A stretch of 64,000 nucleotides of DNA from Antechinus flavipes (taxonomy: Eukaryota): NCBI RefSeq assembly GCF_016432865.1, contig NC_067401.1:323578001-323642000 (forward strand), given 5' to 3'. This document shows positions 11,635 through 55,467 of this stretch, piece by piece. The notes below the pieces were generated by a model, which saw nothing but the letters and a program-made list of their open reading frames with translations, had not been told where the DNA came from and ran no database searches. The translations under genes and the position numbers were made by a program. Positions within the stretch are counted from its first letter, which is position 1. Each line of letters opens with the position of its first letter.

Positions 11635-11806
11635 NNNNNNNNNNNNNNNNNNNNNNNNNNNNNNNNNNNNNNNNNNNNNNNNNNNNNNNNNNNNNNNNNN
11701 NNNNNNNNNNNNNNNNNNNNNNNNNNNNNNNNNNNNNNNNNNNNNNNNNNNNNNNNNNNNNNNNNNNNNNNNNNNNNNNNNNNNNNNNNNNNNNNNNNNN
11801 NNNNNN
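11635..11806. other. Assembly gap (172 N) inside a GA repeat
   Basis: N run flanked by gagagaggaga and gagagacagaga. Confidence 0.99.
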
Positions 11807-40771: not shown

Positions 40772-40930
40772 NNNNNNNNNNNNNNNNNNNNNNNNNNNNN
40801 NNNNNNNNNNNNNNNNNNNNNNNNNNNNNNNNNNNNNNNNNNNNNNNNNNNNNNNNNNNNNNNNNNNNNNNNNNNNNNNNNNNNNNNNNNNNNNNNNNNN
40901 NNNNNNNNNNNNNNNNNNNNNNNNNNNNNN
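40772..40930. other. Assembly gap (159 N) inside an AT-rich low-complexity tract
   Basis: N run flanked by (TA/TAA)-rich sequence. Confidence 0.99.
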
Positions 40931-52800: not shown

Positions 52801-53665
52801 TTTTATACTCTCTATATAATAGCTCTCATCTATATATTCTGGCCTTACTTTTGTCATGAATTCTAAATTCTCCTTTTATTCTTGAATATCTCCTTGATAT
52901 CCTATTAGAATCTCAAATGCAAAAGGCTTGTCTTTCCATGTGAGTCTGTCCCTTTTCTCAATTTCCCTATTTCTTTTGAATTCCTCACCATCTTTCCATT
53001 TACCCAGATTTCTAATCTAAATCATTCTTGACTATTCTCTCTCACTTAGTCCAGCCTATAACAAATTTGGTGTCAAGTCCTACCAACTCCACCTCCACAA
53101 ATTTTTATTTCTGTTCTTTTCTCTAATTTATACAACTTCCTTTTCATTTCGAGCCTTTATCTTCTCTTGCTTCACTACAATAACATACTCCTGATTGAAC
53201 TCATAATATCTAGGCTTCCCCTTCAAACAATCTTCCTTAGGAATAGGTTGGGACTCTTATAGTTACAGAAGTGGTATCTTCTTTTTATCTTTACCTATAT
53301 GTGATGCTGATTGCTTACTTCTGCCTTAACAAGTTGATACAAATTTTTACAAATATCTGGTTCAGAAATGATGCCCATTATCAATAAGCAGTCATTTCTT
53401 GTCTATTTAGAAGAGGTCAATTTCATGTTTTGTGATGTTGTTCAATTGTTCTCCATGCCCACTGCCTCCTGATCCTCACTCAAGGTCCATCCTTCCCTTA
53501 GCTGTTGAATTAAAATAAGGTTTTGATCATGGGCACGTTCTGTTCCCATTCAATAAGCTTCAGTGGCTTTCTATTACTTCCAGGATAAAACATTCAGAGT
53601 TTTTTTACAATCTGTCCCCCTCCTATCTTTATGTCTTCTTATACATTTTACACAGTTATTTACAA

Positions 53666-53730
53666 TCTAGTGATTAAGATTTGGTGCTTTCACTGCCACA
53701 GCCCGGGTTTGATTCCTGATCAGGGAACCA
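53666..53730 (+). pseudogene. tRNA-Glu(TTC)-derived copy, tRNA positions 11 to 3' end including CCA; its 3' 18 nt form the PBS of the adjacent LTR
   Basis: TCTAGTGATTAAGATTTGGTGCTTTCACTGCCACAGCCCGGGTTTGATTCCTGATCAGGGAACCA matches the mammalian TCCCTG-type tRNA-Glu at 55/65. All 10 mismatches are transitions and 7 are CpG decay. The first 10 nt are missing and CCA is genomically present. Confidence 0.9.
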
Positions 53731-53732
53731 CA

Positions 53733-54392
53733 TGATGAGGTTTAGATTTGGGGAACCCAAATGAAATTAGGGTTTCTGGTGGTCAGGAAGTTAAATGATA
53801 AGGTCTAGTGGCAAGTTCGGGGTTCAGGGAGCCAAATGGAGAAGTTTGGCTCCCCTGCACTCCCTTAAGATTCAGAGCAAGGGTAGGGAGTTTTGGGGAC
53901 TCCCTTCTGGTGATGCAGAGGATCTCTGTAAAGGAATTTACAGACCTGAAAACCTAGACAGATAAAAGAGGTTTATTACAGGGATTGGAAGTAAGATTAA
54001 AGTCTGGTTAGGGAAATAGGTGAGGGTAAAGAGAAGATGGCATTGGAAAAGAGTATACCAGTAGGCAGAGGCTTCTTGGGTAGCTAAGCATGGTATAGCT
54101 GGCATGTTTGGAACCTCTGCAAAGAGAGGATTTTACTTTGACTTTTATATTAGGGATCTTTGGCTACAAGCTGAAGGGGGTTCATGGGTGGAGTCCCAAG
54201 TTGGCTCCTAGCTGGGTTCCAGCTTCGAGCTAGAATTTGAATTGAATTCAATGAGTTTTAGGACTGAACGAACCCCACTCAGATAACAAAGATGAAACTG
54301 TTTGTCCTTTGGGGTAGGGGTCCCTCACTGAGGCTGAGTTGAAGGAGATTTTCTTCTTTAAGGATTTTCAGAGTTTGGGAGTCCCTTCTTCA
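53733..54392 (-). mobile_element. ERV LTR (660 bp) with tRNA-Glu primer-binding site
   Basis: Minus strand begins TGAAGAAGG and ends CCTCATCA (imperfect inverted termini). TATAAAAG is at 54142-54149 and AATAAA at 53972-53977. A 2-nt spacer and then TGGTTCCCTG (PBS-Glu) follow. No internal genes and no clear TSD. Confidence 0.85.
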
Positions 54393-55467
54393 CTCTGTAA
54401 TCAGGTATCAGTGAGTTCCTTGCTGTTGTTCACACAAGCCACTTCACCTCCTGACTCTGGGCATTTTCACTGGCTGTTGTCCATTGCATGAATTCAAACT
54501 ATCCTGGCTTCCTTCAAATTCCAGCTAAAATGCTATTGTTTCAAAGAAATGTTTCCTGACTTCTCTTAATACTTCCTTCCCTCTTTTAATATCTCCTTAA
54601 GATCAAGTACTATTTTGCCATTCTTTGTATTCCCAGGCCTTAGCACAGTTCCTGGCACAAAGGAGGAGCTTAATCAATGCTTATTAACTGGCTGAGTAAT
54701 TGCCTGACTAGTGAGGCTCGGTGTTCTTCATGTCTCCTGCCTTCTGATTCTCTCTCACCCTCCTCCCCCAAAAAGCCCTCATAATATACAGGTATGAAAC
54801 ATCTAAGTAGCTTATAAATTATTAATTAATAATTTTAAACTACATTTTCCAATATATATTTTGTCCTCCTATCTCCATCATTACAATGCAGTCATTACAT
54901 ACATTTATAGTGAATTAATGTGGATTTCTCTGGGTTTTTTTTTTTCATCTTTTGTCTCAGATATTAGCATAAGTTACAATTTTCTCTGTAGTGTCTCTTT
55001 TGCTTCTGGCTGTCATGAATATGGCAAGGTAACAAGTACAAGTATATGTAAAATTATGTTTCATGTTGCTTTTGGATGCATTATCAAATTGATTTTAGAC
55101 AGTCTTTTTTCCTTCCTTCTTCAAAGAAAGCCCTTGGGTCTACTTTTCATTTGGCTACAATTTCTTTTTATCTTCTGATTTCATTTAAAGCATGAAATGT
55201 CAAAAGACAGGATGTCATCTTGCTTGTTGTGGAGCAAAGGTTTCACATCTAGAGCACCTATGGTTAAATTGATATTTGTATTTAACAAAAATTAACAAAT
55301 TTTATCAGCTTTCAGTTGCCTTTCTTGCCAATCTCCTAGTAACTATAGTAATATTTAGAGAGAGGCCCCAAAGGATTAAAGATCATTTTGTATTTTGTTT
55401 CATGGATTGTCATAGTCAAAGAATTCATCACATTATGTCCAGTTTATTCATGATAAAATCCTTTACA

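Follow-up and report, generated by a model that had tools for sequence, protein, structure and literature searches.

The window, by which we mean the whole 64-kb stretch of DNA analysed here, contains a complete LTR joined to a CCA-bearing copy of tRNA-Glu, and the two together lie between the halves of an older repeat. The features of the locus are as follows.

53556..53665, plus strand: left half of the host repeat, matching positions 2-150 of a profile built on 29 copies in the genome
53665..53668, plus strand: left half of a possible imperfect 4-bp TSD, 3 nt of which are shared with the tRNA end (3/4 letters equal to 54393-54396)
53666..53712, minus strand: read-through primer copy past position 58, to nt 11 of 75
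53713..53730, minus strand: canonical 18-nt PBS part, the CCA end of tRNA-Glu (tRNA alignment)
53731..53732, minus strand: 2-nt spacer from LTR to PBS, TT in most copies (sequence and copies)
53733..54392, minus strand: complete 660-bp LTR (TG...CA) from a family primed by tRNA-Glu, with edges common to many copies
53776..53784, minus strand: 9-nt U5 box complementary to tRNA-Glu nt 4-12
53783..53806, minus strand: putative second remnant of an LTR end with its Glu PBS in U5, 71% like the present junction
53802..53811, minus strand: 10-nt U5 box complementary to tRNA-Glu nt 9-18
53824..53847, minus strand: putative older remnant of an LTR end with its Glu PBS in U5, 79% like the present end/PBS junction
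53972..53977, minus strand: AATAAA polyadenylation signal (sequence)
54143..54149, minus strand: TATA box (sequence)
54393..54396, plus strand: possible right half of the imperfect 4-bp TSD, just outside the TG of the LTR (sequence)
54393..54493, plus strand: right half of the host repeat, matching positions 135-236 of the 29-copy profile (40 genomic matches)

The LTR runs on the minus strand from 54392 (TG) down to 53733 (CA). Alignments to other genomic copies start at 54390-54394 and stop at 53733, and in contigs from four other organisms loose ends accumulate at 53733 and 54392. Among the loci compared, the closest full-length copies are 83-87% identical to the window LTR. Positions 53730-53666 are the reverse complement of mature tRNA-Glu, 65 nt including a CCA that is absent from the intact tRNA-Glu genes examined in the genome. 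Relative to a genomic tRNA-Glu gene, the copy has 7 CpG-type and 3 other differences, and its read-through part has the correct T opposite A58. Neither ARAGORN nor Rfam makes a call for this truncated tRNA copy. The earlier note had described a minus-strand LTR (TG..CA, TATA, AATAAA), a 2-nt spacer and 65 nt of mature tRNA-Glu with CCA, all of which we confirm; the LTR/tRNA junction, which it had placed within 53700-53760, is refined to 53731-53733. It had also seen no leader or gag and no second LTR, and we find no second LTR or family internal sequence anywhere in the 64-kb window. Two runs of N, at 11635-11806 and 40772-40930 of the window, are distant from the fusion.

The two ends of the insertion differ. 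The U3 end begins exactly at TG, without the AA of the family, and looks integrase-processed; the earlier suggestion of integration without normal integrase processing holds for the tRNA end, to which abnormal processing appears limited. No exact TSD was found at the locus, as had been noted, but an imperfect 4-bp TSD (3/4) is possible, and it would cut the tRNA copy to 62 nt plus 3 nt of microhomology. The locus resembles an ERV solo LTR in having a single complete LTR from a family that makes 4-bp TSDs. However, an ordinary solo LTR has a CA end, a TSD and no PBS, whereas the window locus retains the spacer, the PBS and 47 more bases of the primer body, with no exact TSD.

The flanks are colinear halves of one older repeat, which we take to be an L2 LINE, with no large loss between them. 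The profile of this host repeat is coarse for the exact joint and TSD, such that several joints score within 4 bits, and the tRNA end resembles the host repeat over 3-7 nt. In organisms A and B, individual contigs extend unbroken from the left flank through the tRNA to the LTR, and contigs of A, C, D and E span the other junction of the LTR. There is no empty site among the five other organisms, all of which have the insertion at one or the other junction; the tRNA part is uncovered in D and E and carries no evidential weight there. Because the fusion is spanned and shared by contigs of other organisms, it is real DNA, it is fixed, and it predates the splits from the organisms compared. At 53677 and 53682 the bases in organisms A and B are tRNA-like, and at 53689 both have a C, giving a CTC anticodon. 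Given that C, the primer of the window copy was probably tRNA-Glu(CTC), though the window now reads TTC.

The LTR family has the traits of ERV-like LTRs: dispersed copies, TG...CA ends, TATA, AATAAA, and two-LTR copies with a PBS, a PPT and a short TSD. The family may belong to the class I (gamma-like) ERVs, as the 4-bp TSD and the Glu primer suggest; Gag_p30 is present elsewhere in the genome, unlinked to the LTR of the window. Two copies with both LTRs (L297 and L298) have a PPT ending in AA before TG and perfect 4-bp TSDs. Their insides are 2.4 and 4.4 kb long, none of their 41 open stretches matches Pfam, and these elements are likely non-autonomous. In the leader-bearing copies of the family the PBS is only 12-18 nt. 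The leaders of L002, L004, L008, L024 and L094 include a second PBS-like motif a few bases past the Glu PBS, which an earlier primer may have left behind.

To count fusions like that of the window, we searched the genome with a 26-nt CCA-bearing Glu pattern allowing at most one mismatch, using the reversed pattern as a control. There are 31 matches genome-wide to CCA-bearing Glu copies of at least 26 nt, and none to the reversed pattern, for which reason we dismiss a chance origin. Four of the 31 belong to one fixed 24-nt leader and two share a junction, leaving 26 independent fusions, a lower bound as the search requires a near-exact 26-mer and more decayed copies exist. Directly behind an LTR end, with the short spacer of the family, sit 26 of the 27 Glu copies (L101 does not clearly do so, yet it is counted). 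The fusions span several LTR subfamilies, isoacceptors and end points. Only L097 and L104 share a junction amongst the 27, and no other copy has the tRNA junction of the window. Young near-perfect copies derive from different tRNA genes (L093 TTC, L099 CTC, L086 TTC). The copies end at 26 to 75 nt, and 6/27 reach at least 72 nt, which does not agree with the proposed stop next to the often methylated positions 9/10 (m1G9/m2G10). Nor is the locus the single fossil that it was first taken for: together with the tRNA-Lys3 set described below, the genome includes 26 independent Glu and 42 independent Lys3 fusions. The class is nevertheless rare, in that of 401 genomic sites with an LTR end plus a Glu PBS, none of the 60 sampled (the first listed) has a tRNA match beyond 23 nt.

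Past the tRNA, we observe three outcomes. In one, host DNA follows the tRNA directly, as in the window locus and about ten others, with no exact TSD. In the other two, the tRNA is followed either by a remade LTR end or by an inverted piece of LTR. Where the second end is remade or inverted, there are perfect 4-bp TSDs in L099, L097, L104, L093 and L003; amongst the remade-end copies without one, L095 has 3/4 matching letters, L040 has 2/4, and L085 a repeat of 7 bp. None of the 23 Glu copies whose LTR start was located has a PPT or internal sequence before the LTR. The AA with which the family PPT ends precedes TG in two of the 13 Glu copies lacking a full second end. Three copies (L083, L084, L039) are cut at the 5’ side, for which break capture or later loss is possible.

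Several individual copies have more complex structures. Head-to-head LTR pieces are joined via a tRNA copy or a PBS in L003, L083, L093, L038 and L023, and L003 and L093 have their perfect 4-bp TSDs at two U3 ends. After 44 nt, the tRNA copy of L082 doubles back and continues as the sense sequence of that tRNA. In L092 (G000:C5:230590445-230593470), an LTR is followed by a tRNA-Glu 3’ end that switches to tRNA-Asp(GTC) at the shared T-loop, and then by an inverted leader-PBS-LTR-PPT piece; the PPT is present only on the inverted piece. ARAGORN calls the LTR-derived fossils L033, L038, L039, L093, L097, L104 and L092 as tRNA genes, and such calls can inflate tRNA annotations.

As a control with a different primer, we performed the same search using the tRNA-Lys(TTT) gene of the genome (Lys3), and examined all 51 matches. 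Five copies of a fixed 24-nt module, one segmental duplicate, and three of the four copies of a fixed 39-nt module were excluded, leaving 42 independent fusions. Before collapsing the 39-nt module, 41/45 copies follow the LTR spacer rule; L238, L244 and L245 are not clearly behind an LTR end, yet they are counted. Of the 32 Lys3 copies whose LTR start was located, none has a PPT or internal sequence in front. Two Lys3 LTR motifs are preceded by purine runs, which were considered as PPTs and rejected, as they are LTR-internal.

The Glu and Lys3 fusions differ in where they end and where they err, in a comparison probably confounded by the different RTs and ages of the two sets of elements. Copies extending beyond 41 nt, past the anticodon loop, amount to 18/26 for Glu and 1/42 for Lys3 (P=2e-9), the single Lys3 copy being a doubtful low-complexity case. 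The Lys3 end points are at 36-41 nt in 23/42 copies, where 39 nt corresponds to the base that precedes position 37. The base opposite A58 is wrong in 17/42 Lys3 copies (13 A, 3 C, 1 G) versus 1/26 Glu copies (P=6e-4); at the other 25 positions, the Lys3 copies have 10 mismatches in total (counted on 45). The earlier note had RT reading through m1A58 at the window locus. Copying did continue beyond 58, but the low rate of wrong bases in Glu relative to Lys3 indicates that A58 of tRNA-Glu was probably unmethylated. Relative to exact 18-mers, exact 26-mers number 18/305 for Glu and 18/2580 for Lys3, with denominators that include LTR-internal PBS modules. One Lys3 lineage (L231, L239, L273 and L277) replicates with a 39-nt stretch of tRNA in its U5, and L277 continues into a different Lys-type PBS and leader.

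These patterns can be compared with published tRNA chemistry. In human, according to PMC5066629, no tRNAs other than tRNA-Asp(GTC) and tRNA-Glu(CTC) are low in m1A58; the L092 chimera happens to combine an Asp and a Glu tRNA, the same two. For tRNA-Lys3, PMC13191261 reports plus-strand stops in vitro at m1A58, 55, 54 and ms2t6A37, a full copy in vitro when the tRNA is unmodified, and transfer served by only the short products. According to PMC8599865, read-through blocks completion and integration, and the role of m1A58 as a real in vivo plus-strand stop has been disputed for decades. The fossil pattern matches human chemistry: Glu copies are long and error-free, and Lys3 copies have errors at 58 and stop short of 37. 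Both where the copies end and where they err accord with the known modifications of each primer, where the modifications are those described in human, and we infer that they carry over to the marsupial germ line.

Shorter primer pieces occur within the LTRs themselves. Most of the 60 sampled Glu sites are solo LTRs holding a 12-23 nt PBS and a new end within the LTR. These PBS-plus-new-end modules are shared by many copies and many subfamilies, and Lys3 LTRs are alike. Many solo LTR subfamilies (L136-L195, L256-L267) end in one or two such modules of 12-23 nt, and about a dozen of the sampled module copies are 21-23 nt long, near the known stop before position 54. With automatic TSD calling, for which the edges are crude, 13/28 module-bearing solo LTRs have a perfect TSD. 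The shared modules, their Lys3 counterparts and the two older likenesses of the end/PBS junction in the U5 of the window LTR suggest that the U5 of these families grows through repeated capture of primer pieces. The U5 of the window LTR also has the two boxes complementary to the 5’ part of the tRNA; shuffled sequences include such a 10-mer in 6/300 cases and the 10-mer plus the 9-mer in 2/300. We think that these boxes could be landing sites for a template switch. In the subfamily of L039, L097, L104 and L295, 13-15 nt of U5 are complementary to the 5’ end of tRNA-Glu, and the whole-tRNA copies of that subfamily finish in a remade LTR end.

We propose, with a probability of about 0.75, that the window locus is an integrated plus-strand strong-stop DNA, made by an LTR retroelement, whose synthesis over-ran the primer. 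The locus has the whole U3-R-U5, the spacer, the CCA end, and a primer copied past nt 58, with no PPT or leader, and the LTR, spacer and CCA-bearing tRNA are arranged in the polarity of strong-stop DNA. This is the core idea of the earlier note, of a strong-stop DNA copied far past 58 and then integrated; the evidence supports it, and both of the alternatives that would have refuted it fail, as we detail below. The proposal builds on what we observe directly: the anatomy, the recurrence, the primer-specific stop and error patterns, and the TSDs where two LTR ends exist. Synthesis primed at the PPT would copy U3-R-U5 and then 62-65 nt into the still-attached tRNA-Glu. As tRNA-Glu would often be without m1A58 and would have no bulky base 37, RT could continue error-free to the tRNA 5’ end; on tRNA-Lys3, RT would at times bypass m1A58 with a wrong base and halt before ms2t6A37. 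The over-long strand would fail the normal second jump. Integrase would cut and join the U3 end, and in the window copy the tRNA end would be patched by host repair. In an alternative rescue, a template switch by RT may remake the LTR end, or make a second inverted U3 end, and both ends could then integrate with a 4-bp TSD. Some of the switch products may have gone on replicating, lengthening U5 by repeated primer capture.

Other readings have to be weighed against this one. The same read-through chemistry could have resulted in a different integrated molecule: a provirus with a primer copy at its right end and one abnormal end integrated, later reduced by LTR-LTR recombination to a solo LTR with a tRNA tail. 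Solo LTRs are common products, and such a history accounts for the exact, integrase-made TG end together with the absent TSD. We nonetheless consider it unlikely, as a PPT or internal sequence is in front of the LTR in 0/23 Glu and 0/32 Lys3 copies, although the young Glu subfamily keeps two-LTR copies, and as L092 has its PPT solely on the inverted piece. Alternatively, host repair might have joined both ends of an LTR-tRNA cDNA into a chromosome break, without integrase, as with yeast Ty1 cDNA at breaks. The lack of a clear TSD at the window locus and the 3-7 nt over which the tRNA end resembles the host repeat are what one would expect from such a capture. On the other hand, the U3 end begins precisely at TG, 11/13 copies lacking a full second end do not have the AA that unprocessed DNA would carry, and the copies with two LTR ends have 4-bp TSDs, all of which leaves break capture a small chance.

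The earlier note had named two other ways to obtain an LTR next to a tRNA: a truncated provirus of a family whose consensus carries the whole tRNA, and an LTR landing beside an older processed tRNA pseudogene. Fixed primer modules do exist, of 22-24 nt in the Glu families and of 39 nt in four Lys3 copies, and L097 and L104, which share a whole-tRNA junction, could be one small lineage. But the two-LTR copies of the subfamily have a 12-18 nt PBS and a leader, so for this subfamily a consensus with the whole tRNA is rejected; no other copy shares the junction of the window; and a chance insertion next to a pseudogene cannot yield 26/27 copies directly behind an LTR end with the family spacer. 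Both possibilities are largely refuted already, and we regard them as highly improbable. A tRNA retropseudogene made by LINE-1, independent of LTRs, with an 8-30-nt TSD and with or without an A-tail, was also considered and rejected, as the locus does not have those traits.

Joined tRNA and LTR sequences are known in other settings. In the capture of Ty1 cDNA and tRNA at breaks, tRNA primer sequence is joined to LTR DNA. One-ended aberrant retroviral integration has one normal and one repaired end, a tRNA-Lys3-like sequence is embedded in HIV-1 U3-R, and there is a strong-stop origin model for tRNA SINEs. To our knowledge, these tRNA-LTR cases are experimental or single, and none is a genome-wide fossil class with a modification signature.

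There is a close likeness with over-extended plus-strand strong-stop DNA of retroviruses, as presented in PMC13191261 (products P1-P5) and PMC8599865 (TRMT6 mutants). There too the primer is copied past 18 nt, with Lys3 stops at 55/54 and ms2t6A37 and a full copy if the tRNA is unmodified. Those products were observed in vitro or in cell culture, and the long ones are described there as unable to transfer or integrate, whereas the fusions in this genome are fixed germ-line insertions, dozens per genome. The primer over-extension sequence of lentiviruses and spumaviruses, also from PMC13191261 and PMC8599865, is alike in that replicating lineages have fixed 22-24-nt tRNA matches; here, in contrast, the captured piece and a new LTR end join U5, repeatedly, and private copies reach 75 nt. 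The tailless tRNA retropseudogenes of PMC5322556 are likewise partial tRNA copies in therian genomes, but they are LINE-1-made and have long TSDs, whereas the fusions here retain CCA, are missing the 5’ end and adjoin an LTR. The fusion class is not described in the accessible portions of PMC5322556, PMC11334065, PMC3601003, PMC12789967 and bioRxiv 2025.05.12.650695. A literature search, with thin coverage of subscription journals and older virology, returned no account of LTR-primer fusions in genomes as a class, though they may have been mentioned before.

The genome supplies in vivo germ-line products of plus-strand synthesis, with an error signature at m1A58 and a stop at position 37 for Lys3, and neither of them for Glu. 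Long read-through products, assumed to be non-integrating, are found here as germ-line insertions. In general terms, we think it rather probable that mammalian genomes hold fossils of tRNA chemistry, that is, integrated over-run strong-stop DNAs whose end points and errors record the state of m1A58 and position 37 millions of years ago, and that such slips lengthen U5 again and again and drive LTR evolution. The findings suggest a route by which the U5 of an LTR acquires sequence complementary to tRNAs. The two-pattern search is applicable to any assembly, and the idea can be tested in human, mouse and plants. The approach could infer germ-line tRNA modification for species or times beyond sampling.
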